From a virus: 37,787 nt of DNA. Positions 12,419 to 35,296 of the stretch are shown piece after piece; the stretch's first letter is position 1, and each line of letters begins with the position of its first letter. The translations under genes and the position numbers were made by a program. The stretch covers positions 1 to 37,787 of IMG/VR virus record IMGVR_UViG_3300008266_000182; one strand, given 5' to 3'. Below the pieces are notes generated by a model. It was given only the letters and a program-made list of their open reading frames with translations, was not told where the DNA came from and ran no database searches.

Positions 12419-12502
12419 TCACACCTTCCAAGCACGTTTGAGAGAGTTAAGCACCGTGAAACCGGCACGGCGGTAGATCAGATATTGGCGGATGTATTTC
12501 AT
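12419..12502 (-). CDS. Possible 27-aa basic peptide
   Basis: ATG overlaps upstream stop (ATGA); MKYIRQYLIYRRAGFTVLNSLKRAWKV; fills the gap between two genes. Confidence 0.3.
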   Translation of the reverse strand: MKYIRQYLIYRRAGFTVLNSLKRAWKV

Positions 12503-12792
12503 TTCGATTCCTCCGTAAAAACTTCCAACTCTTCCAATTTCTGCGCCACAAAGCAAGCCTGAATTGTCTCTTTGTAAGCCTTGACTAGTGGGCATTCGCT
12601 TTTCTCGATCATTGCGATAAAAGCGTTTTGTGATGCTGTTTCACCGTGGTAGTCGTTGAAAACGGCCTGCATCGGATATTGTGAAACACGTCCGCCAATG
12701 CTTTTGGCATAGCTCACATAAGGAACGCTCAGGGATGTGAAAGGCACCTTGCCAATAGCGGCGAAGGTTTGATTGATGATGTCTAGGTACAT
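12499..12792 (-). CDS. Hypothetical protein, first gene of the leftward operon
   Basis: 97 aa; ATG 12792 preceded by CCGGAGCGAGTAAATG, the conserved leader shared with other promoters of this phage. Confidence 0.65.
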   Translation of the reverse strand: MYLDIINQTFAAIGKVPFTSLSVPYVSYAKSIGGRVSQYPMQAVFNDYHGETASQNAFIAMIEKSECPLVKAYKETIQACFVAQKLEELEVFTEESK

Positions 12793-12821
12793 TTACTCGC
12801 TCCGGTTGGTTGATGTGATGG

Positions 12822-12865
12822 ATTGTCTAGCAGAAATTTGAAGCTGTACATTAGGGTATACCCTA
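12822..12865 (-). promoter_or_regulatory. Leftward early promoter: palindrome TAGGGTATACCCTAAT, TGTACA (-35-like), 17 nt, GACAAT (-10)
   Basis: Minus strand reads TAGGGTATACCCTAAT-22 nt-GACAAT, then the leader ...CCGGAGCGAGTAAATG; same architecture as at 19160, 23701 and 26250. Confidence 0.55.
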
Positions 12866-12873
12866 GGTATAAT
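12845..12873 (+). promoter_or_regulatory. Rightward sigma70-like promoter TGTACA-17-TATAAT with the palindrome filling the spacer
   Basis: Consensus -10 TATAAT at 12868-12873. The -35-like TGTACA at 12845-12850 is itself palindromic and shared with the leftward promoter. Confidence 0.55.
12852..12865. promoter_or_regulatory. Perfect 14-bp palindrome TAGGGTATACCCTA (putative operator / activator site)
   Basis: Self-complementary as read; near-identical copies at four other promoter-proximal positions. Confidence 0.6.
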
Positions 12874-12879
12874 CGCGTT

Positions 12880-12985
12880 GTCGAGTGCTGCCACATGAGA
12901 CACAATAGAGGCCCCTAGCTTCTGTTCTTGCCCGTTCAATCGGGAGCATGTGGCAGCATGCGAGAGCAGAGACTAGGGGTTTTTG
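12880..12985 (+). ncRNA. Candidate ~105-nt structured sRNA / leader RNA
   Basis: Starts just after TATAAT. It has a 13-bp helix 12885-12897/12947-12959 (extendable to 12881/12963) and an inner hairpin CCCG-ttcaat-CGGG. Loop bases CCCCTAG..TCTG (12912-12924) pair with CAGA..CTAGGGG (12967-12979), followed by TTTTT. Confidence 0.45.
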
Positions 12986-13276
12986 CTTTCTACGTCAGGG
13001 CGCGTAGACACAGCTAATGGGCCATGTCGGGGCTGCACCCATATACCGATGGCGTTTCACTGATACCCCCGACGCCGTGGCGTTTCCTAGCGACCACCAA
13101 AACACGCAACGCAAACTGACAGGTAGTCTGGCCCACTTAACGGGCGCGTGATAGTTGAATAGGACGTTCTGCGAGTAGTAGGGAGCTTTCCATAGGCTCT
13201 TGGCTAAAGGCTTCGAAAGCTGCCCACTATGGGTATCAGGAGCCTCGGGGGTATCTCATGGCCTTCTGAATGTACC

Positions 13277-16776: not shown

Positions 16777-16858
16777 AAGCCCTAGACGGTATTCTGCTGG
16801 TGCCCACCAGTCCGCCAACACGCGAAAGCGTGAGAGTACCGCCTAGGGCTTTTTTATT
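16777..16858 (+). terminator. Complex intrinsic terminator (three-way junction) before the replication genes
   Basis: The outer stem AAGCCCTAGACGGTA/TACCGCCTAGGGCTT has 1 mismatch. It encloses CTGGT-gccc-ACCAG (16797-16810) and CACGC-GAAA-GCGTG (16819-16832), and is followed by TTTTTTATT. Confidence 0.55.
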
Positions 16859-16867
16859 GGGATAAAC

Positions 16868-17632
16868 ATGGCAGGCGATTGGATAAAGCTCCAAAAAGAC
16901 ACGCCGGATAAGCCTGAAGTGCTCGCAATGGCATCTAGGCTTGGCATTGATAGTGACGCAGTTGTTGGCAAGCTGGTGCGCATCTGGTCATGGTTTGACA
17001 CTCACACGACATCCGGTAACGCATCATGCGTTACATATTCGTTTCTAGATCGTCTCGCAGGCGTTACAGGATTCGCAGAGCAGATGGCTTTAGTTGGGTG
17101 GCTTGAGCAAAACGGGCACGATCTAAGCCTTACAAACTTCGGTTATCACAACGGAGAGACTGCAAAAACCCGCGCTTTGGGTAAAAACAGGGTGGAAAAG
17201 TCTAGGAGTAACGCAAACAGTAACGCTCCTACCGTTACAAATCCGTTACCAGAGAAGAGAAGAGAAGATATAAATACAGATATGTCGCCAGCCAAGCTGC
17301 CGACCTGTCCGACAAGCCTTGTCATTCAAAGTTATCACGACCACTTGCCGACATTGCCAACAGTCAGGCTGCAAAGCGAATCGCGAACTAAGGCCATTGG
17401 TGCATTCTGGAAATGGGTTCTGACAAGCAAGAGAGCAGACGGGACACATCGAGCAGAAAACGAAGATCAAGCGCTGCAATGGATAGGCGAATATTTCAAC
17501 CGTGCAAACGACAATGATTTTCTGATGGGCCGAAATGCCCAATCTGGAAAACATGCCAACTGGAAAGCAGATTTTGATTTTCTGTTGACCGAAAAAGGCA
17601 AGCGCCACGTCATAGAAAAAACAGGGGGATAA
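16868..17632 (+). CDS. Replication initiation / helicase-loading protein candidate
   Basis: N-terminal WIKLQKDTPDKPEV...AVVGKLVRIWSWFD is typical of recalled phage replisome-organizer-type proteins; directly precedes dnaB. Confidence 0.5.
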   Translation: MAGDWIKLQKDTPDKPEVLAMASRLGIDSDAVVGKLVRIWSWFDTHTTSGNASCVTYSFLDRLAGVTGFAEQMALVGWLEQNGHDLSLTNFGYHNGETAKTRALGKNRVEKSRSNANSNAPTVTNPLPEKRREDINTDMSPAKLPTCPTSLVIQSYHDHLPTLPTVRLQSESRTKAIGAFWKWVLTSKRADGTHRAENEDQALQWIGEYFNRANDNDFLMGRNAQSGKHANWKADFDFLLTEKGKRHVIEKTGG

Positions 17633-24649: not shown

Positions 24650-24972
24650 AACGCGACCCAGAAGAGGCGGTTGACTTCATACTAGCCAACGCTAAGAAGT
24701 TCGCCAGCGCAAAGGCGGACCGCATTTACTTGGAAGAGTTCAGGAAGAGCAAGAAGGCCATTCTGATGAAGGAAAGCGCGGAAAAAAGCGCAGCCGCTAA
24801 GGAAATGGACGCCTATGCACATCCTGACTACATCGAGCTAATCAAAGGACTGCGGGAGGCCGTGGAGATTGAGGAGCTTTTAAAGTGGAAGCTGATAGCT
24901 GCCCAGATCGTGCCTGAAATATGGCGCACTGAGCAGGCTAACAACCGAAACCAAGACAGGGCAGCGCGATGA
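24646..24972 (+). CDS. Hypothetical protein (108 aa)
   Basis: ATG 24646 overlaps upstream stop (ATGA). Confidence 0.6.
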   Translation: MKRDPEEAVDFILANAKKFASAKADRIYLEEFRKSKKAILMKESAEKSAAAKEMDAYAHPDYIELIKGLREAVEIEELLKWKLIAAQIVPEIWRTEQANNRNQDRAAR

Positions 24973-25244
24973 CCAATGACGAAAAGCGCCATAAAGCAAA
25001 GCTGGCAGACATGGCTTGCATCATCTGTGAACGCATCTATGGGCAACACGCTGGAGGCAATGTAGAGCTACATCACTTGAGGGCTGGAGGATGGGGAAAA
25101 GGCGACTATAGAACGCTAATCCCACTATGTTTCAACCATCACAGGGGTACAGAAGGCATACACACAATGGGAACAAAAGCATGGGAGCGCCATTTTGGCG
25201 TGAGTCAAACGGATTTGTTAAACGAGATATTGGAGCGGATTTAA
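24969..25244 (+). CDS. HNH-type nuclease, Ref / DUF968-like
   Basis: CIICE...VELHHLR...IPLCFNHHRG..GIH fits the recalled RecA-dependent nuclease (P1 Ref-like) pattern. Confidence 0.55.
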   Translation: MTNDEKRHKAKLADMACIICERIYGQHAGGNVELHHLRAGGWGKGDYRTLIPLCFNHHRGTEGIHTMGTKAWERHFGVSQTDLLNEILERI

Positions 25245-25729
25245 TGCGTAAAAAGTGCAATCGCAAGGTGTGGCTCAAAGTCAACCCCATTGAACACGCC
25301 AAGTATCAGGCCAGCCTGTTGACCCATGCCGAGTGGAATGACCAGATGACGCCAGTTATCGCCGCCTTAGACCGTTTAAGCCGTGGCGATTGGGATAAGG
25401 TGGAGTGCTGGCAGCCGATGTTCGAGTGCCTGAACCGAATCGAGAGCATGATTGTCTTGAATCGGGTGGACGCGATGCCGTTTGTCAAACAAGCGCAGGC
25501 GGCAATGGTTAACGCGCTAGACCGTCAGAAGCGCATGGGAACCCAGTCATTCAAGGCCGAGGAACTGGCGACACTACGAGAAGTGGTGAGCGTTTACGGC
25601 GATCTATTGAAAGAGGTAACCCATGCTCAATTTCAACGGGCTACGGCGCACACAAACGCCAACGTCACGCGAATTCTCAAGAACAAGGGCAATATGAAGA
25701 ACATTAACGATTGTGTATTTGAAGCATGA
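25244..25729 (+). CDS. Hypothetical protein (161 aa)
   Basis: ATG 25244 overlaps upstream stop (TAATG); no motif recognised. Confidence 0.6.
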   Translation: MRKKCNRKVWLKVNPIEHAKYQASLLTHAEWNDQMTPVIAALDRLSRGDWDKVECWQPMFECLNRIESMIVLNRVDAMPFVKQAQAAMVNALDRQKRMGTQSFKAEELATLREVVSVYGDLLKEVTHAQFQRATAHTNANVTRILKNKGNMKNINDCVFEA

Positions 25730-26144: not shown

Positions 26145-26257
26145 ACGACGAAGAATTACAAGACGCAGAGCTAGACGCGCTTGTCTCTGGTGGGCTGTTT
26201 GTGGTGACTGTAGCGTTTGCTGTGGTCGGCGCAATTATTTTGCTGAACCTAGGGTAA
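26141..26257 (+). CDS. Small membrane protein (38 aa)
   Basis: ATGA coupling; MNDEELQDAELDALVSGGLFVVTVAFAVVGAIILLNLG; its stop lies inside the palindrome at 26250. Confidence 0.45.
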   Translation: MNDEELQDAELDALVSGGLFVVTVAFAVVGAIILLNLG

Positions 26258-26293
26258 ACCCTAATACTCAGACACCAAAGCAGGCCCGATAAT
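26250..26293 (+). promoter_or_regulatory. Promoter with palindrome TAGGGTAAACCCTAAT, 22 nt, GATAAT (candidate late promoter)
   Basis: The 16-mer is identical to the copy at 19160 and starts 38 nt before GATAAT (26288-26293); leader ...ATCAACAACGCAACCGGAGAGAGAAATG. Confidence 0.55.
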
Positions 26294-26324
26294 TGAGCTA
26301 TCAACAACGCAACCGGAGAGAGAA

Positions 26325-26519
26325 ATGACAAACGTAACCCGCGCACAAGTCAACAAAGCAATCAAGAGCTTGGGACAAATTGAGCTAATCAAGGGCAACG
26401 GCTATTTCTACTTCGTGGGCGACTCCGTGAGCGTTGATGCTTCTGGTGTTTATGTGAACTCCATCGGCCAGCTGACGCTAGATCAATGGATTGACGAGGC
26501 AAAGCAAGTAATTCAATAA
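26325..26519 (+). CDS. Hypothetical protein (64 aa)
   Basis: Strong conserved leader/RBS; KGNGYFYFVGD...LTLDQWIDEAK. Confidence 0.65.
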   Translation: MTNVTRAQVNKAIKSLGQIELIKGNGYFYFVGDSVSVDASGVYVNSIGQLTLDQWIDEAKQVIQ

Positions 26520-26523
26520 ACCC

Positions 26524-26539
26524 AAGGGCTACGGCCCTT
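26524..26539 (+). terminator. Stop-proximal hairpin AAGGGC-tacg-GCCCTT (no U tract)
   Basis: 6-bp GC-rich stem 5 nt after the TAA of 26325..26519. Confidence 0.3.
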
Positions 26540-26704
26540 AAGTGCTAAAATAGAACAAAGGGCGGCTCATTATCTCCCTCCGATAGTCTCAATCCTAGAC
26601 TAGACAATTCTCTCAAGTGCGACCACTGGCAGCCCGATTGTTTTGGCAGTGCAAGCATCAAAAGCGCCGAGCCTTAAACATTAGCGCAATTTTGAGAATG
26701 GATG

Positions 26705-26861
26705 CATGAAGTAAGCGCATCGAATACGGTGAGTATCCGCGGCCTCGTCGGAGCCGTCACCGGAGAGTACGAGGTGGTGCGCTTACTTGATGTCTCATGA
26801 ATCAAGCCGCTTGGCATCATTAACCCCGATGCAGCTAAAGTAACAGGCGGTTTGATTGATG
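26705..26861 (+). ncRNA. Two consecutive long hairpins in ORF-free DNA (part of a candidate structured RNA)
   Basis: H1 is closed by AAGTAAGCGCA/TGCGCTTACTT (26709-26719/26778-26788). H2 is closed by ATCAAGCCGC/GCGGTTTGAT (26801-26810/26847-26856). Confidence 0.35.
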
Positions 26862-26904
26862 GAACGGGCTTAGATTTTTAATCACTTCTGCCAAACAAAC
26901 AATT

Positions 26905-26990
26905 GAAGTAGCCGCGCTGAGATTGCTCGCGCACCATCAACCATCACGCATGTGGACTATGGAGCCGGTTCGACTCCGGTAACTTCGCCA
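26905..26990 (+). ncRNA. tRNA-like cloverleaf (non-canonical) ending in G-CCA
   Basis: Acceptor GAAGTAG/TAACTTC, then two hairpins with 2-nt and 1-nt tRNA-like linkers, then T arm GCCGG-TTCGACT-CCGGT (26964-26980), then GCCA. No canonical D loop and no U33 equivalent. Confidence 0.4.
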
Positions 26991-27126
26991 TACGACTCTA
27001 GCAGTCTGAGGCCAAGGCGGAACCAGTCCACAGCCGTGATGGTGAAGAAAAAGCGTTTCAAGGGTCAAGTAGTGGGTCACCCCTTGGTGAGCAAGTAACG
27101 CCATCAATTAATCAACAGGAGGAAGA

Positions 27127-27252
27127 ATGTCAAACACAGAAATCAACGCAGTAAGCGCCGCACTAACAATCGCCGTCATCGCCGCTGGAGGTGTCGCAGG
27201 ATATGCGGCCTATCGCTTTACGATGTGGTTCGCTCAATTCATGGTATGGTGA
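27127..27252 (+). CDS. Small membrane peptide (41 aa)
   Basis: AGGAGG RBS 6 nt upstream; MSNTEINAVSAALTIAVIAAGGVAGYAAYRFTMWFAQFMVW. Confidence 0.55.
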   Translation: MSNTEINAVSAALTIAVIAAGGVAGYAAYRFTMWFAQFMVW

Positions 27253-27256
27253 GATC

Positions 27257-27379
27257 ATGAAACTCTACGAATGGTGTTTGGGCCTTGGACTCTGCGCAAT
27301 CGGACTGCCTTTGCTGGGTATCGGATACATCGCAGTGGTAAAGCTGTTGATTGAGGATGAGCAGAGGGGCAAACGATGA
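27257..27379 (+). CDS. Small membrane peptide (40 aa)
   Basis: MKLYEWCLGLGLCAIGLPLLGIGYIAVVKLLIEDEQRGKR; its stop overlaps the terS ATG (ATGA). Confidence 0.5.
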   Translation: MKLYEWCLGLGLCAIGLPLLGIGYIAVVKLLIEDEQRGKR

Positions 27380-27867
27380 CAGGACGACCAAGCAAGTACA
27401 AGAAAGAGTTTGTTGAGCAGGCTGTGAAGCTGTGCAAGCTTGGTGCGACTGATATAGAGCTGGCTGACTTCTTTGAGGTGAACGTCGCAACGCTTTACCG
27501 ATGGAAGAACGAATACCCCGACTTTTGCGAGGCCTTAAAGATTAGCAAGGCTGTAGCTGATGACCGAGTAGAGCGCAGCCTGTTTGCCCGAGCTAATGGC
27601 TACGAGCATGAGGAAGTTGATATTCGTGTAGTGTCTGGAGAGATTGTCAAGACGCCTATTCGCAAGTTCTATGCGCCCGATACAACTGCCTGTATCTTCT
27701 GGCTGAAGAACCGCCGACCTGAAGCATGGCGCGATAAGGTAGAGACAGAGCTATCAGGCCCGAATGGTGGGCCGTTGGAGACCAAGGCAACCCTTGATGT
27801 GGGCTCTCTGTCTACAGAGGCTCTAGCGGAGATCATGGCGCTTAAAGATGCAACTAAGCCACGATGA
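27376..27867 (+). CDS. terS: Terminase small subunit
   Basis: N-terminal HTH GRPSKYKKEFVEQAVKLCKLGATDIELADFFEVNVATLYRWK is typical of recalled small terminases; directly precedes the large terminase. Confidence 0.8.
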   Translation: MTGRPSKYKKEFVEQAVKLCKLGATDIELADFFEVNVATLYRWKNEYPDFCEALKISKAVADDRVERSLFARANGYEHEEVDIRVVSGEIVKTPIRKFYAPDTTACIFWLKNRRPEAWRDKVETELSGPNGGPLETKATLDVGSLSTEALAEIMALKDATKPR

Positions 27868-29302
27868 ACTATTGAACGCAGAGCGGGAACTGTGCAAGCG
27901 GTCACTCGCTCACTTTGCGCGCAGGGCGTGGCATGTGCTGGAGCCTGTAGCAGAACTCAAATGGGGATGGGCGCTAGACGCCATCTGCCTGCACCTTGAA
28001 GCGGTGACCGATGGGCGAATCACTCGCCTATTGATGAACGTGCCGCCCGGCTCTATGAAGTCTCTGTTAACGGGTGTTATCTGGCCTGCGTGGGAGTGGG
28101 GGCCAAAGAACATGCCAGAGATGCGTTTTATCGGCACGGCACATGAGGAAACCCTAGCCATCCGAGATAGCCGCAAGTGCCGCGACTTGATTAAATCTGA
28201 GTGGTATCAAGAGCTTTGGCCGGTAGAGCTGGCAAGCGACCTAGACGGGAAGCGCGAGTTCGGCAACACCAAGAAGGGCGTCCGTCAGGCGCGATCATTC
28301 ACCAGCATGACAGGCGTTCGTGGTGACCGTGTGATATTGGACGACCCTATCAGCGCGGACTCTGCTAACTCTGACTCGAAACTAGAAGCAGCAAGAATCG
28401 CGTTTACCGAGACGCTACCAACACGAGTCAACAGCGAAAAGAGCGCCATTGTCGTAGTGATGCAGCGACTGAACGAGAAAGACGTCAGCGGCATCATTGT
28501 TGAAATGGGCCTGCCTTATGTGCATCTGCGTATTCCAATGCGCTTTGAGGCTGCTAGACGCTGCACGACAGAGATAGGGTGGACTGACCCGCGCACCAAA
28601 GAGGGAGAATTGATGTTCCCCGAGCGGTTCGGAGAGCAGCAGGTAAGCGAGCTAGAGAAAACGCTTGGCACCTATGGCGCAGCAGGCCAGTTGCAGCAGC
28701 GACCAGCGCCTCGTGGTGGCGGCATCTTGAAGGAACACTGGTACAAGTACTATACCGTGTTGCCGCGCCTTGAATATCGAATGATCTACGCCGATACAGC
28801 GCAAAAGACAGGGCAAGAGAACGACTATTCTGTTTTCGAGTGCTGGGGGCGATCATTGGCCGGTGATGCTGTACTGATTGACCTTATCCGAGGTAAGTGG
28901 GAGTCGCCTGAGCTACTGGTCAACGCCCGTGCGTTTTGGTTGAAGCATCTAGCCATCAAGGGCGCACCGCTTAGGGCGATCAAAGTAGAAGACAAGGTAT
29001 CTGGAACCGGCTTAATCCAGACGCTACGCCGTGAGCGTGTACCAGTCTTGGCGATACAGCGAGGCAATGACAAGATCAGCCGCGCACACGATAGCGCACC
29101 ATTTATCGAGTCTGGCGGGGTGATGCTGCCCATTGATGCGCCTTGGCTGTCAGACTTTCTTAAAGAGTCGTCAACCTTCCCCGGTGGAGCCAATGACGAC
29201 CAGCTAGACCCGATGTTTGACGCCATTAAAGACGCGCAAACCCTGCCGGTGCAGAACATATCGGAAACTGTAACCGCTTTACCTACCGCTAATAGGTGGT
29301 GA
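27848..29302 (+). CDS. terL: Terminase large subunit
   Basis: ATPase P-loop-like NVPPGSMKS, Walker B RVILDDP, and a C-terminal nuclease region with DDQLD; position between terS and portal. Confidence 0.85.
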   Translation: MQLSHDELLNAERELCKRSLAHFARRAWHVLEPVAELKWGWALDAICLHLEAVTDGRITRLLMNVPPGSMKSLLTGVIWPAWEWGPKNMPEMRFIGTAHEETLAIRDSRKCRDLIKSEWYQELWPVELASDLDGKREFGNTKKGVRQARSFTSMTGVRGDRVILDDPISADSANSDSKLEAARIAFTETLPTRVNSEKSAIVVVMQRLNEKDVSGIIVEMGLPYVHLRIPMRFEAARRCTTEIGWTDPRTKEGELMFPERFGEQQVSELEKTLGTYGAAGQLQQRPAPRGGGILKEHWYKYYTVLPRLEYRMIYADTAQKTGQENDYSVFECWGRSLAGDAVLIDLIRGKWESPELLVNARAFWLKHLAIKGAPLRAIKVEDKVSGTGLIQTLRRERVPVLAIQRGNDKISRAHDSAPFIESGGVMLPIDAPWLSDFLKESSTFPGGANDDQLDPMFDAIKDAQTLPVQNISETVTALPTANRW

Positions 29303-29324: not shown

Positions 29325-31412
29325 ATGGCACGTTTAACACTAGAGCAGCGCTTATCAAACCTTCACGCCGAAGCCGTGGCAGAGTTTGACAACATCCAAG
29401 GCGCTATGCGAGATGAGCGCTTGCAGGCATTGCAAGACCGCCGTTTTTACTCACTCGCAGGCGAACAGTGGGAAGGCGCACTCGGTGAGCAGTTCGCCAA
29501 TAAGCCGAAGTTTGAGGTGAACAAGATTCACCTCGCAGTCTTGCGCATCATCAGCGAGTACCGAAACAACCGAATCACTGTTGACTTCCTGAGCAAAGAG
29601 GGCAACGAGTACGACAAACTAGCCGACACTTGCGACGGACTCTACCGCGCAGATGAGCAGGACTCGGGAGCCGAGGAAGCCTACGATAACGCCTTTGAAG
29701 AAGCTGTTGGCGGTGGCTTTGGTGCGTGGCGTTTGCGCACTTGCTACGAGGACGAAGAAGACGACGAGAACGAAAAGCAACGAATTCGCATCGAGCCAAT
29801 CTTCGACGCTGATAGCTCTGTTTTCTTTGACCTTAACGCAAAGCGACAGGACAAGGCAGACGCTAAAAAGTGCTTTGTCATCACTTCAATGACGATTGAG
29901 GCGTACAAAGAGCAGTACAACGACGACCCCGCAAGCTGGCCCAAAGACATTCAGCAACTCGAATTTGATTGGGCAACGCCTGATGTTGTTTATGTCGCCG
30001 AGTATTACAAGGTCGAGGAAGTGGGTGAGACAGTTCGCATATTCCAAGCGCTAGACGGCACCGAAGAGCGCTACACCGACGCAGATTTTGAGAATGACGA
30101 GAACCTAGAGGAAACGCTGGCCGCGATTGGTAGCCGCGAGGTGCGTCAGAAGAAGGTCAAGCGCAAGAAGGTACACAAGTACATCCTATCCGGTGGTGGC
30201 GTCTTGGAGGATTGCGGCTACATTGCAGGCCGCTGTATACCTGTCGTGCCGGTTTACGGTAAGCGGTGGTTCGTGGACAACGTAGAGCGCTGCATGGGCC
30301 ATGTGCGATTGGCAAAGGACTCGCAACGCCTGAAGAACATGCAGCTATCCAAGCTGGGTGAAATCAGCGCACTGTCCAGCGTGGAGAAGCCTATTCTGAC
30401 CCCTGAGCAGGTAGCAGGGCATCAGATCATGTGGTCCGAGGATAACCTGAAGAACTACCCTTACCTGTTGGTAAACCCGATTCTTGACGCTAACGGACAA
30501 CCGACAGTCGCAGGGCCAATCGGATACACCAAGCCGCCACAAATCCCGCCAGCAATGGCCGCACTATTGCAGATCACAGAGCAGGACATACAAGACGTTT
30601 TGGGCAATCAGCAGCAGGGTGACAAGATGGTGAGCAACATCTCAGGCAAGGCTGTGGAGATGATTCAGCAGCGCCTAGATATGCAAACGTTTATCTACGT
30701 GTCCAACATGTCCAAGGCCGTGCGCCGTTGCGGTGAAATCTGGTTATCTATGGCGCGGGATGTGTACGTCGAGAAGGGCCGCAAGATGAAATCAATCGGC
30801 TCACAGGGTGAAATGACCAGCGTGGAGCTAATGCGCCCCATGATGGCAGAGTCCGGTGAGCAGGAAATGGAGAATGATCTATCCTCCGCTCAGTTTGATG
30901 TGACTGTGGATGTAGGCCCGTCATCTAGCTCTAAACGTGCGTCAACTGTCCGCGCACTCACAGGCATGGCCGCGATCACTGAAGACCCAGAGACTAAGCA
31001 AGTCTTGGGAGCGATGGCAATGATGAACATGGAAGGAGAGGGCATTGAAGAAGTGCGAGACTATTTCCGACGCAAGCTGCTAAACATGGGCGTCGTTAAG
31101 CCTACCGAGGAAGAAGCCAAGCAACTCAAAGAAGCCAAGGACAGCGCGCAACCCGACGCCAATACAATCTACATGCAAGCCGCCGCGCAGGAAGCCAGCG
31201 CAAACGCAGCACTGAAGAACGCGCAGACGGTCAAGACCATCAAAGACGCTGAATTGACCGAGGCAAAGACAATCGAAACCATGACCAACATCGACGCATC
31301 AGAAGTGCGCACCGCAATGGAGGTCATTGATAAATTTGGGCAATCGCCGCAACCCCCAGAGGTTAATGCGGTAGTCGTAAGTCCTAATGAGGTTCCCGCG
31401 CAGCCTCTTTAA
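29325..31412 (+). CDS. Portal protein, P22 gp1-like
   Basis: GGGFGAWRLRTCYEDEE and IRIEPIFDADSSVFFDLNAKRQDKADAKKCFVITSMT parallel recalled P22 portal segments; long helical C-terminal barrel region. Confidence 0.9.
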   Translation: MARLTLEQRLSNLHAEAVAEFDNIQGAMRDERLQALQDRRFYSLAGEQWEGALGEQFANKPKFEVNKIHLAVLRIISEYRNNRITVDFLSKEGNEYDKLADTCDGLYRADEQDSGAEEAYDNAFEEAVGGGFGAWRLRTCYEDEEDDENEKQRIRIEPIFDADSSVFFDLNAKRQDKADAKKCFVITSMTIEAYKEQYNDDPASWPKDIQQLEFDWATPDVVYVAEYYKVEEVGETVRIFQALDGTEERYTDADFENDENLEETLAAIGSREVRQKKVKRKKVHKYILSGGGVLEDCGYIAGRCIPVVPVYGKRWFVDNVERCMGHVRLAKDSQRLKNMQLSKLGEISALSSVEKPILTPEQVAGHQIMWSEDNLKNYPYLLVNPILDANGQPTVAGPIGYTKPPQIPPAMAALLQITEQDIQDVLGNQQQGDKMVSNISGKAVEMIQQRLDMQTFIYVSNMSKAVRRCGEIWLSMARDVYVEKGRKMKSIGSQGEMTSVELMRPMMAESGEQEMENDLSSAQFDVTVDVGPSSSSKRASTVRALTGMAAITEDPETKQVLGAMAMMNMEGEGIEEVRDYFRRKLLNMGVVKPTEEEAKQLKEAKDSAQPDANTIYMQAAAQEASANAALKNAQTVKTIKDAELTEAKTIETMTNIDASEVRTAMEVIDKFGQSPQPPEVNAVVVSPNEVPAQPL

Positions 31413-32436: not shown

Positions 32437-33705
32437 ATGGCCAATCAATTCAGCAAAGAAGAGCGCGTAGCCTTTGAGGACGTACTCGAAAAGTTCAACG
32501 ATCAACTCGTTCTTTCCCGCAACGTCAACAAGTACAACACCGACTCCGTGACAATGGAGCGGACTAACGACACCATCTGGCGCCCACAGCCGTACATTGC
32601 CCAGTCTTACGACGGCACTGACGCAACATCCAACTTCAACGACCAGACTCAACTGTCTGTACCTTCTACCATTGGCTTCGCCAAACACGCCACTGCAATC
32701 CTGACCGCAACCCAATTGCGCGACCTGTTGCAAGAAGGCCGACTGGGTGAAGCTGCTGCGCAGAAGCTGGCGTCTGATGTGAACGTGGCCGTTATGAACG
32801 TTGCCGCACAGCAAGGCTCTCTGGTGGTGAAGCGCACCTCTGCCGCATCCGGTTTTGATGACATTGCGCAAGCTGAAGCCATCATGAACGAGCAAGGCGT
32901 TCAAGCGTTTGACCGTTACATGGCCCTGTCCACACGCGACTACAACGGCATGGCTTCCAACTTGGCAGGCCGTCAGACCTTGACCCCCAAAGCCCTGACA
33001 GCTTACGAGAAGGCCTACATTGGTCAGTTGGCATCGTTTGATACCTACAAGCTGGACTACGCAAACAGCTTGCCAGCCGCTGCCGGTGGTGCGTCTATCA
33101 CCATCAACACATTGGACGCAGGTAACAACCACTACACACCTAAAGCGACTTCTACAGCCGCAACAGGTGAAGTGTCCAACGTTGACAACCGCTACCAGAC
33201 CGTGACCGTTTCCAGCACCACTAACGTGGCTGCCGGTGACTGCTTCACTATCGCTGGTTTGAACGCTGTGCATCACATCACCAAGGGCGACACCGGCCAG
33301 CTCAAGACCTTCCGTGTGATCTCCGTGACCAACGGCACTACTATGGTGATCTCGCCCCCGATCATCACCAACCAAGTGGCAAACGCTGCCGCCGCTCAGT
33401 ACCAAAACTGCAAGATCAACACCAAGGCGTCTAACAGCGCTATCGTGTGGTTGAACACTGTGCGCGCCAACGTTAACCCATTCTGGCAAAAAGACGCCAT
33501 CGAATTGCTGCCCGGACGCTATGCCGTGCCAACCGATGCGGGTGCTGCTGTGATGCGCGCTACCACCGACCAAGGTATCGAGATCGTCCTGCAAAAACAG
33601 TACGACATTGACACCATGAAAACCAAGTATCGCTGGGATACCCGTTTTGGCGTGGTGATGACGCAGCCGCAGATGGCGGGTATCGTTCTCTTCTCGCAAT
33701 CCTAA
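32437..33705 (+). CDS. Major capsid (coat) protein, P22 gp5-like
   Basis: ERTNDTIWRPQP, NVDNRYQTVTVSSTTNVAAGDCFTIAG and NPFWQKDAIELLPG parallel recalled P22 coat segments. Confidence 0.9.
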   Translation: MANQFSKEERVAFEDVLEKFNDQLVLSRNVNKYNTDSVTMERTNDTIWRPQPYIAQSYDGTDATSNFNDQTQLSVPSTIGFAKHATAILTATQLRDLLQEGRLGEAAAQKLASDVNVAVMNVAAQQGSLVVKRTSAASGFDDIAQAEAIMNEQGVQAFDRYMALSTRDYNGMASNLAGRQTLTPKALTAYEKAYIGQLASFDTYKLDYANSLPAAAGGASITINTLDAGNNHYTPKATSTAATGEVSNVDNRYQTVTVSSTTNVAAGDCFTIAGLNAVHHITKGDTGQLKTFRVISVTNGTTMVISPPIITNQVANAAAAQYQNCKINTKASNSAIVWLNTVRANVNPFWQKDAIELLPGRYAVPTDAGAAVMRATTDQGIEIVLQKQYDIDTMKTKYRWDTRFGVVMTQPQMAGIVLFSQS

Positions 33706-33790: not shown

Positions 33791-35296
33791 GTGGAAAAAA
33801 TCATTTACGCTAATGGGACTGCTGAAGTATTAGTCCCCGCCGGTCAGAAAATCGCAATCGCAACTTACGGGAACGAATACGCAACTCTCTCATTCAAGCG
33901 CGGCAATAACCTAGAGTTCATTCAGCGACTCAATAACGCGCAGGTAACGCTAGGCCCTTGGACTGATGTTCGCACCGTCAACATTGAAGCCGCACAAGAC
34001 CCAGTTTCTTACGATGTGGGCACTGCGCCGTTCCTTGAGAGCAATGTGCGGATGAGTTCTAATCCTTTCACCGGGGGGGTCACAGGGATTCAGGCACCAG
34101 ATGGAAGCCGCATCGCGCTCGCTCCCATCGCAGGCAGCGGCTGGACGCGCCCATTCAGCGGAGGCCCAGCCTCTGCCACCCCCTTCACATTCTGCAACCA
34201 GCATCCCGTGGTTCCGCGCTTCGTGGGTGTGCAGCTTGGGTTTCTCAACTTGGGTACTGCTGCCTACACCGTGGCGGGCGCTAAAGTCGCAGTGGCACCG
34301 ACTGACGGTAACAATGGACAGGCACTCACATGGGTCGATGCAACATTCGACAATGGTGTTTCCTCTACCGCCACTCCCAAGGTGATTGCGGCTGGCTCTG
34401 GTGCAACCGTTAACGCTGTGCCCGGTGGACTGACAGCGACTGACGTTATCCCCCTGTTGCCGGTAGATCGCACGGACATTCCGGGCAATCCTTTTCTGGT
34501 GCAGACACGAAGCTACATCAGCACAAACTCCACTTTGCACGCTACGCAGGCGGGGGGTATTACGGCATTCCGCGCCGCCACCGGCTTGGAGTTCGGCTCT
34601 ATGATTTCTCCCGGCGATCAAGTTACAAACCCTGCAACCCAATCAGTGGTGCCATCAGCAGCAGGCACATGGATTTGCCCAAGCGTGGTCAAGTTCTACT
34701 ATGAGGCCCCCACTATCAACGTCGCTGGTATTGGTGACTCGCTAATGCGCGGCCAAGGCTCCACATCGGGGCATAACAGCGGCGAAGAAATTGCCTGCCG
34801 CCAGCTATCCAGTGCGAGTAAGGTTTACGCTTATGCAAATTACGGCATCTCGGGCCAACAGATCGCCGCAAGTTTTGCAACAGCTCAGGCTGTATTGGCA
34901 TCCGACACATTCCGCCCACAGGTGCTAGTCTGGAAAGCGTTTTCCCCCAACGACGCCTACACGCAAGCGAACTTTGACGCGGCCTATCTCTACTTGTTGC
35001 GCTTGATGGATTTGTGCAACCAGAAGGGCGTGGCCCTGATTGTTCGCAATGCACAGCGCTGGAATCAATCGCCGGGCAACACTGCACTGATCGAGGCATT
35101 CAATGCTCGGGTGGCAAAGTTGTCAGGGTTGGCGATTAACGACGACTACGGCATTCTTTCTGCGGGTGCCCCAGACGGAATAAAGAACAACCTTGCATAC
35201 ACCGTTAGTGCAGGCGACCAGCATTTAAGTGATGCGGGTTATGCAGCTATCTCTGCAACGCTCAAGAAGTTGATTCTTGCGGCTTACCCTGCCTAA
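33791..35296 (+). CDS. Two-domain protein: unknown N-terminal ~300 aa plus C-terminal SGNH/GDSL hydrolase domain
   Basis: GDSL block INVAGIGDSLMRGQGS, block III-like FSPNDAY and block V-like GDQHLSDAGY; GTG start at 33791. Confidence 0.7.
   Translation: MEKIIYANGTAEVLVPAGQKIAIATYGNEYATLSFKRGNNLEFIQRLNNAQVTLGPWTDVRTVNIEAAQDPVSYDVGTAPFLESNVRMSSNPFTGGVTGIQAPDGSRIALAPIAGSGWTRPFSGGPASATPFTFCNQHPVVPRFVGVQLGFLNLGTAAYTVAGAKVAVAPTDGNNGQALTWVDATFDNGVSSTATPKVIAAGSGATVNAVPGGLTATDVIPLLPVDRTDIPGNPFLVQTRSYISTNSTLHATQAGGITAFRAATGLEFGSMISPGDQVTNPATQSVVPSAAGTWICPSVVKFYYEAPTINVAGIGDSLMRGQGSTSGHNSGEEIACRQLSSASKVYAYANYGISGQQIAASFATAQAVLASDTFRPQVLVWKAFSPNDAYTQANFDAAYLYLLRLMDLCNQKGVALIVRNAQRWNQSPGNTALIEAFNARVAKLSGLAINDDYGILSAGAPDGIKNNLAYTVSAGDQHLSDAGYAAISATLKKLILAAYPA

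Follow-up and report, generated by a model that had tools for sequence, protein, structure and literature searches.

The leader of the packaging/late operon in a P22-like freshwater phage genome probably carries a diversified array derived from transfer RNA (tRNA) genes, roughly 600 nt long and encoded on the + strand. We examined a 37,787-nt stretch of viral DNA, positions 1 to 37,787 of IMG/VR record IMGVR_UViG_3300008266_000182 (hereafter, the window), in which a sequence-only reading had singled out positions 26905–26990 as an 86-nt tRNA-like cloverleaf with an encoded CCA. On balance, these 86 nt look like a straddle of two neighbouring parts of the array—the end of a decayed tRNA-like unit, U0, and the start of a long spacer hairpin, M2—and not like one RNA. 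Coordinates of the features are collected in Table 1.

M2 is a 102-nt hairpin with a 16-bp stem (26941–26958 with 27025–27042). The underlying inverted repeat (26940–26958/27025–27043) is among the best in the genome, and 26938–27046 folds at −46.2 kcal/mol (z = −3.93), a value reached by none of 200 shuffles. Pair probabilities, computed in two contexts (26880–27126 and 26690–27260), were about 1.0 for the M2 stem, 0.8 for a T-arm-like hairpin in its tip and 0.97 for a hairpin just upstream, H. Across 12 distinct stems of the M2 type (our main covariation count; a smaller count on six sequences was also made), 97.9% of cells are paired over the 16 pairs, against 29–45% in slid controls of the stem alignment. 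Double changes occur at seven of these pairs (24 cells), and the covariation score is 0.425 versus 0.175 in shuffles, none of 500 reaching the observed value. Two stem positions carry U.G in eight and nine of the 12 sequences, respectively; read on the − strand, these would be A.C mismatches, which places the structure on the + strand, the one that is sense for the flanking genes.

Spacer hairpins of this family follow the pattern CYATCAMG ... CKTGATGG, preceded by CRCCATCA(A), and combine an 8-bp helix 1, a small symmetric internal loop, a covarying helix 2 of 8–11 bp and a variable tip, all of which are found at 26941–27042 of the window. We list 22 distinct M2-type hairpins, 68–120 nt long. 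Neither the spacer hairpins nor the AGATCAGYA-loop hairpins described below matched an Rfam 15 family when the window and the relatives' loci were scanned. A hairpin match in contig L006 lies inside terL and looks like chance. Mobile palindromes resembling miniature inverted-repeat transposable elements were rejected as an explanation, the hairpins being confined to arrays and not dispersed in the genome, as were protein-binding DNA repeats, given that helix 2 covaries without sequence conservation and that the U.G pairs point to + strand RNA. A 'minihelix' nested in the M2 tip (TATGGAG, T arm, CGCCATA) was also discarded; it lies 6.1 kcal/mol above the best fold and has a probability of 0.00.

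Contigs of relatives, given here by their L numbers, were retrieved via terS, via members of its 90% cluster and via a conserved 25-mer. Close relatives have a terS 98–99% identical to that of the window, and relatives keep 26820–26945 at 91–99% identity; from about 26945 divergence is complete, with similarity back only near the 3' strand of the stem and the ribosome-binding site. All relatives that keep the 5' half also have the long stem, but with different sequences, and the apical parts are unrelated between phages otherwise >90% identical. Close relatives show unrelated apical sequence, extra hairpins or no hairpin at all, and the number of M2-type hairpins per leader runs from none (L051, L069) to four or more (L063, L067). 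As judged from these alignments, the stem is kept by compensatory change while the M2 tip swaps freely between related phages.

Some leader alleles carry other small elements. Hairpins resembling intrinsic terminators, GACCCAAGCAGCTTCGGGATTTTTTT and GCCGGACAATACATAACCGGCATTTTTT, occur at L001:2243–2545 (= L068) and L063:~860–880, so that late transcription would have to read through them; L001 also has a 305-nt insertion exactly after CACCATCAAC. A small ORF (open reading frame) with its own ribosome-binding site (GGAGGGATTGCTGTG...) sits, moron-like, between two spacer hairpins at L071:~490–800. The small hairpin GCCTCGGAAAGACGAGGGC, 3' of the conserved CGGCCTCCCGCTGCGGGGTT, recurs in the leaders of L001, L065, L069 and L071, where it stands just 5' of either the ribosome-binding site or a spacer hairpin.

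The tie to tRNA is clearest in more distant contigs. A scan of IMG/VR for the 5' boundary of the hairpin gave 80 pattern matches with bimodal stem pairing: 9–13 of 16 pairs by chance and 14–16 in 18 real hairpins, which extend the family to larger and different phage contigs. In these, spacer hairpins adjoin real tRNAs—tRNA-Asn in L121 (59.3 bits), tRNA-Gly in L116 and tRNA-Arg in L084 (60.3 bits)—and tRNA-like units that match the Rfam tRNA model (gathering score 29) at 44.7 bits in L111 (9851–9955) and 34.1 bits in L116 (3017–3122), in both of which the anticodon arm is lengthened by an insert of about 43 nt. Such a unit reads GATGGTG-TA-GCTCAGTGGGTAGAGC ... GCTGG-TTCAAAT-CCGGC-CATCATC-A-CCA, its acceptor being GATGGTG / CA(C/T)CATC + A + CCA. 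It follows that the boundary motif before every hairpin, CACCATC-A-(A)CCA, is a tRNA acceptor 3' strand with discriminator and CCA, and that TGATGG-TG at the 3' end of every hairpin holds the acceptor 5' strand of the next unit. The leader is thus an alternation of tRNA-register units and spacer hairpins, which also explains its local excess of CCATCA (five copies in 250 nt, versus about one per kb genome-wide).

Most of the 32 distinct boundary contexts have a hairpin of 4–6 bp directly beside the CRYCATCA boundary, belonging to one of four classes: true T arms, AGATCAGYA-loop hairpins, GTAGGG-NNTT-CTCTGC and the H class. Loss of the T-loop consensus has thus not undone the acceptor/T-arm layout of the units. 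In the AGATCAGYA class, the stems vary in a compensatory manner (GCCGG/CCGGC, GCCAG/CTGGC, GTCAG/CTGGC). The AGATCAG(C/T)(A/G) loop occurs in L001, L002, L055, L071, L080, L085 and L094, always at the T-arm position beside CRCCATCA, and its conservation suggests a recognition motif of its own. Arrays lie upstream of terminase genes (the window, L116), between head genes (L111) or after lysis genes (L121).

Several of the distant units deserve separate mention. Those at L111:9851–9958 and L116:3017–3126 combine canonical acceptor, D and T arms with an encoded CCA, and an extended arm replaces the anticodon stem-loop; its tip is a common 8-nt loop, AGGAAAUG, on different stems (UGCGGG/CCUGCA versus GCGGU/ACCGC). 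ARAGORN does not call these two units, and further relatives of them occur in L113 and L080/L095/L098. On the reverse strand of L084, 10300–10398 holds a hairpin of the TCATCAAAGCA / TGCTTTGATGA type that includes, close to its 3' strand, the T arm TGGG-TTCAAGT-CCCA. The ARAGORN call is 'tRNA-Pyl(cta)' and the Rfam tRNA score, 24.7 bits, is below threshold; the hairpin is probably a further tRNA-like element and not a tRNA that serves in decoding. The T-loop hairpins at L084 10594 and L085 1170 differ by a compensatory stem change (AGAGG/CCTCG versus AGTGG/CCACG).

Within the window, U0 is the positional homologue of the tRNA-like genes in L113, L116 and L111. Its start, GGTTTGATTGATGG, is identical to that of the L113 tRNA-like unit, and in an alignment hairpin H falls on the T arms of L116 and L111, with which it has GCGCGCTG... 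(given also as GCGCGCTGG...) in common. The stem of H is invariant in relatives, with ATTG or ATCA as its loop, and nhmmer matches of a profile of the tRNA-like units reach into H in L071, L065 and L066. Folded alone, U0 forms a four-way junction (−22.8 kcal/mol, z = −2.36). A second decayed unit, U1, lies just before the Shine-Dalgarno sequence; it is more decayed than U0 and shares its first five bases with the 3' strand of M2. Further upstream, the region of hairpins M1 and M1b (26690–26900) folds with z −3.95; M1 has the CTTGATG-type base of the other hairpins, is not present in L001/L048 and has another hairpin in its place in L055.

Table 1. Features of the array, helix 2 variants of M2-type stems, and nearby genes (coordinates are those of the window).
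Feature	Position	Strand	Sequence	Basis or remark
Hairpin M1	26705–26792	+	CATGAAGTAAGCGCA / TGCGCTTACTTGATG	58 nt between arms
Hairpin M1b	26798–26859	+	AATCAAGCCGC... / ...GCGGTTTGATT	
U0, decayed tRNA-like unit	26856–26943	+		Fold, flank identity, position
U0 acceptor-like stem	26856–26862 / 26934–26940	+	TTGATGG / CCATCAA	
U0 arm	26885–26889 / 26905–26909	+	ACTTC / GAAGT	
Hairpin H	26914–26932	+	GCGCtGAG-ATTG-CTCGCGC	T-arm position of U0, beside acceptor 3' strand
U0 acceptor 3' strand, discriminator, CCA	26932–26943	+	CACCATC-A-A-CCA	Motif recurs throughout arrays
Predicted RNA end at U0	about 26939–26943	+	CACCATCA-ACCA	
U0 terminal CCA	26941–26943	+	CCA	
M2, spacer hairpin	26941–27042	+		Fold, inverted repeat, covariation
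M2 helix 1	26941–26948 / 27035–27042	+	CCATCACG / CGTGATGG	
M2 internal loop		+	CA / GC	
M2 helix 2	26951–26958 / 27025–27032	+	TGTGGACT / AGTCCACA	Helix 2 variant of the window
M2 apical part	26959–27024	+		Hypervariable
T-arm-like hairpin	26964–26980	+	GCCGG-TTCGACT-CCGGT	Apical part of M2
Predicted third arm of M2	26984–26989 / 27016–27021	+	TTCGCC / GGCGGA	Pair probability 0.72–0.83
U1, second decayed unit	27038–27106	+	GATGGTG (27038–27044) ... CGCCATC-A (27099–27106)	
Predicted RNA end at U1	27106	+	CGCCATCA	
Shine-Dalgarno	27117–27122	+	AGGAGG	
41-aa ORF	27127–27252	+		First gene past the array
terS	27376–27867			
terL	27848–29302			
Portal	29325–31412			P22-type
Coat	32437–33705			
Helix 2 variant, L065 and L071			TGCGGATT / AGTCCGCA	
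Helix 2 variant, L066 and L067			TGCGAATT / AGTTCGCA	
Helix 2 variant, L067			TGTTGCTT / AAGCAGCA	
Helix 2 variant, L071			TGCAATATA / TATATTGCA	
Helix 2 variant, L002			CTTTAGATTGG / CCAGTCTAAAG	
Helix 2 variant, L048			CTTCAGTTTGG / CCAGACTGAAG	

The T-arm-like hairpin in the M2 tip has the features of a true T arm: a 5-bp stem, a 7-nt loop, T54-T55-C56-R57-A58 and G53-C61. Its loop is the same as that of the E. coli selC T arm, GCAGG-TTCGACT-CCTGT, and 21 nt across the variable loop and T arm are identical between the window hairpin and a phage tRNA-Asp. The GCCGG/CCGG stem is common to this hairpin and to array hairpins of the AGATCAG class. None of the other 21 distinct M2-type hairpins listed has a T-loop motif, which makes the T arm an allele-specific feature of the variable tip and not part of a conserved cloverleaf. 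It is most probably a relic or paralogue of the tRNA-like units of the array.

Several observations weigh against a tRNA-derived array. Neither U0 nor U1 gave an Rfam or ARAGORN match in the window; nhmmer aligns the tRNA-like profile with no more of the window than 26928–26958, which leaves flank identity and position as the basis for a tRNA ancestry of U0; and the U0 arm is disrupted in some relatives (GAAGAAG, TAAGTAG, deletions). Helix 1 of each spacer takes up bases of the 5' acceptor strand of the unit that follows; formation of the full spacer stem and of the units is thus mutually exclusive, and the array model accounts neither for this competition nor for the very fast turnover of the tips. 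We infer transcription of the array, its processing and any function, and no sigma-70-like promoter was found in 26200–27400. The T arm lies inside a spacer hairpin and not inside a unit. Among comparable apical parts, the hairpin at the corresponding place in L063 lacks a T loop and the L065 tip has only TGGAGCC in common with the window, which leaves room for a convergent T-loop.

That the T-loop arose by chance or convergence on a pre-existing GCCGG...CCGG hairpin, or as a selected RNA module, with no tRNA ancestry or function, is an unlikely reading, albeit one with some arguments on its side: besides the L063 and L065 tips, apical parts are hypervariable and numerous, and the arrays repeatedly show GCCGG/CCGG(C/T) stems that carry other loops. 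Yet the T-loop signature GGTTCGANTCC, found once in the window, is expected 0.01 times per window in shuffles; a TGGA resembling a variable loop stands before the hairpin and a CCA after it; and other members of the array are demonstrably tRNA-derived. A somewhat more doubtful proposal would see here a new modular class of phage RNA, built of covarying stems of 16–19 bp with fast-exchanged apical 'cargo', one of them a T-arm mimic, and freed by tRNA-like punctuation, with tip turnover reflecting an arms race; the tips might then serve, for instance, to decoy or sponge up host factors that bind RNA or belong to tRNA-directed defence.

It is very unlikely that 26959–26990 is an attP remnant whose T arm, acceptor and CCA come from the 3' end of a host tRNA gene. 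The tRNA-likeness does begin only at the variable loop and T arm, as is typical of att cores, and the T arm is ordinary tRNA sequence, as its identity with tRNA-Asp attests. Against this, an exact scan of the genomes of 185,579 species for GGTTCGACTCCGGT(0–2 nt)AACTTC gave three matches, none in a tRNA, where our own estimate of chance was about three, and E. coli genomes, plasmids and phages gave no match. No integrase domain was found in the roughly 40 window ORFs scanned with Pfam, in agreement with the remark in the sequence-only reading that the phage has no recognisable integrase; this and the lack of a tRNA match in that scan argue against an attP origin. The geometry, moreover, is one base short of a tRNA 3' end, and the element sits inside a covarying hairpin within a tRNA-derived array.

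The cloverleaf itself was proposed as a functional 86-nt tRNA mimic—a substrate of RNase P/Z, a decoy or a target of tRNA-directed enzymes. We regard this as highly improbable, and the comparison of related sequences appears already to have largely refuted it. Its components can all be drawn: GAAGTAG (26905–26911) can pair with TAACTTC (26980–26986) through five Watson-Crick pairs and one G-T, with one A-A mismatch; hairpin H is present; so are the CCAT/ATGG and CCAT/GTGG pairings within 26934–26962; and the T-arm-like hairpin is followed by G and CCA at 26987–26990. The proposed four-way junction is also the minimum free energy (MFE) fold of the isolated 86-mer, at −26.9 kcal/mol, and the T-loop motif is rare by chance. 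Yet z is −1.12, with 27 of 200 shuffles folding as well, and the junction is lost once flanks are included: in context, the proposed acceptor and both anticodon-like helices have a pair probability of 0.00, and forcing the cloverleaf costs 15–16 kcal/mol.

Two of the four helices are mutually exclusive with the covarying long stem, the 5' strand of the anticodon-like arm being the 5' side of the M2 stem; the first five bases of the acceptor, GAAGT, pair locally in the U0 fold. The supposed D-like arm is hairpin H, at the T-arm position of a separate upstream unit. In the terminal CCA, C26988 and C26989 are predicted to be paired in the third arm of M2. The T stem and the acceptor stem both claim T26980, leaving the cloverleaf one base short of tRNA geometry. 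That this is no canonical tRNA, as the sequence-only reading had itself said, is borne out by the lack of a D-loop GG (the hairpin loop is ATTG) and the A at position 33 of CACGCAT in place of U. The 3' half is not kept in any relative that holds the 5' half, and the two halves of 26905–26990 are different evolutionary modules. The suggestion of a degenerate tRNA holds in altered form: the region is tRNA-derived, but a single 86-nt cloverleaf is not supported. A hand-drawn cloverleaf can evidently arise from pieces of two unrelated adjoining elements, and comparative data are needed to see it.

Standard searches point the same way. ARAGORN, run for tRNA and for transfer-messenger RNA (tmRNA), permuted forms included, called no gene in the window, and Rfam gave no match at gathering scores and none at E ≤ 10 in 26700–27150, whether to tRNA (RF00005), tmRNA or tRNA-Sec. 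The 86-mer lacks a 7-bp acceptor continuous with the T stem and followed by discriminator and CCA. Apart from the loop of the T arm, its likeness to tRNA-Sec (selC) is a long 'D-like' hairpin with a 4-nt loop, which belongs to another unit, U0; the 8/5 (13-bp) stack, long variable arm and UCA anticodon are missing, with at most 7 plus 4–5 bp in the stack.

YrlA RNAs, known from phages, carry a GNCGAAN0-1G motif near the 5' end for Rsr binding, and their T and D stem-loops, nearly invariant, flank an acceptor-like one (PMC4201824). A Y RNA-like modular non-coding RNA of this type, with a protein-binding stem and a permuted tRNA-like apical domain, would share with M2 the order of long stem, ATGGA, T arm, further arm and stem, and Y RNA genes too can stand in tandem arrays, but the idea is scarcely credible here: no GNCGAAN0-1G was seen by eye in 26925–27050, the near-invariant D arm is missing and only one further arm is predicted, the other listed apical parts have no T arm, Rfam gave no match, and no TROVE-domain (Ro60/Rsr) gene, which would be expected within about 4 kb on the same strand, was found among the roughly 40 window ORFs scanned.

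The closest known kind of element is the phage tRNA cluster with pseudo-tRNAs. Like such clusters, the array is tandem, tRNA-derived and placed in a non-coding stretch of the late region, has recognisable acceptor, T-arm and CCA remnants, and has homologues that hold bona fide tRNAs; unlike them, it has no unit in the window that ARAGORN or Rfam detects as a tRNA, and its units alternate with long covarying spacer hairpins with hypervariable tips that belong to no Rfam family. The closest functional analogue is the t-element of plant mitochondria, a non-canonical tRNA-like structure with a conserved GGTTCRANYCC arm in the leaders or trailers of messenger RNAs, proposed or shown to direct cleavage by RNase Z/P (PMC1920247). 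As in t-elements, the units here keep a hairpin stacked beside an acceptor-like strand; the differences are the phage setting, the arrays with spacer hairpins and the loss of the T-loop consensus in most units.

By analogy with t-elements, RNase P/Z punctuation is a plausible role for U0 and U1, placed differently from that imagined for the 86-mer. The tRNA-derived array would be co-transcribed with the late operon; its units would keep the 'top half' of a tRNA, acceptor and T arm, so that host RNase P, RNase Z or RNase E can cut; and the spacer hairpins would become stable processed ends or released RNAs. Conserved and structured, the array exists in different states of decay across related freshwater phages. 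Should tRNA-processing enzymes cut the units, it would be a phage counterpart of mitochondrial t-element punctuation and a workable system in which to study why tRNA-like relics persist upstream of late genes in phages; should they not, it would be a clear case of tRNA-gene decay and modular exchange in phage non-coding DNA.

The host genome of the array is that of a 37.8-kb P22-like podovirus, the closest database relatives of which are uncultured freshwater phages; apart from the genes in Table 1, it encodes SSB, DnaB, RusA and an HNH endonuclease. A JGI metagenome contig, an NCBI assembly and a Logan assembly, which are independent of one another, all contain the window sequence at 100% identity, so that it is not an assembly artefact. 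The 86 nt had been described as lying in ORF-free DNA ahead of the packaging genes; the 607-nt stretch 26520–27126, flanked by a 64-aa ORF and by the 41-aa ORF that precedes terS, has short ORFs only. A second small ORF lies between the 41-aa ORF and terS. Exact-protein look-ups with the 41-aa and 64-aa ORFs returned identical copies of the same genome only, and nucleotide comparison of 26400–27400 and 26895–27100 with phages, plasmids and E. coli genomes gave no meaningful match; an exact 29-mer was not found in IMG/VR. Nothing convincing as an intrinsic terminator was seen in 26200–27400. A Q-like antiterminator was considered for the 161-aa ORF upstream (25244–25729) and rejected, there being no PDB match and no significant Pfam match. 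In MW202867, the nearest annotated relative, gene order upstream of the terminase gene differs from that of the window.

In the MFE folds of the window and of L002, the conserved CACUUCUGCC (26884–26893) pairs over ~230 nt with the Shine-Dalgarno region GGAGGAAGA (27117–27126); with the entire array inside it, this pairing could occlude the ribosome-binding site of the 41-aa ORF, or be a folding artefact. About 2 kb upstream of terS, ORF 24969–25244 encodes an HNH / Ref-like endonuclease (PHROG 1588 and 8048). The 501-aa ORF right after the coat gene (33791–35296) has a C-terminal GDSL/SGNH lipase-esterase domain (Pfam E = 3e-9), unusual at the post-coat position of a P22-like head module. The best inverted repeat of the genome lies at 16777–16851 (AAGCCCTAGACGGTATTCT / AGAGTACCGCCTAGGGCTT, 19 nt, 89% complementary, 37-nt loop), just upstream of ORF 16868–17632, its sequence being unrelated to those of the leader hairpins. 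A group of inverted repeats clustered at 12484–13255 (pairs 12484/12682, 12531/12823, 12881/12947 and 13062/13242) falls in the divergent early control region between leftward (−) and rightward (+) blocks and may represent operators or promoters. In the distant contigs, L111:6981–7047 matches the Rfam int-alpA RNA at 36.5 bits, just above the gathering score of 35.8, and L121:4680–4735, directly after tRNA-Asn, gives a sub-threshold match to the Betaproteobacteria toxic small RNA (32.7 bits, gathering score 50).

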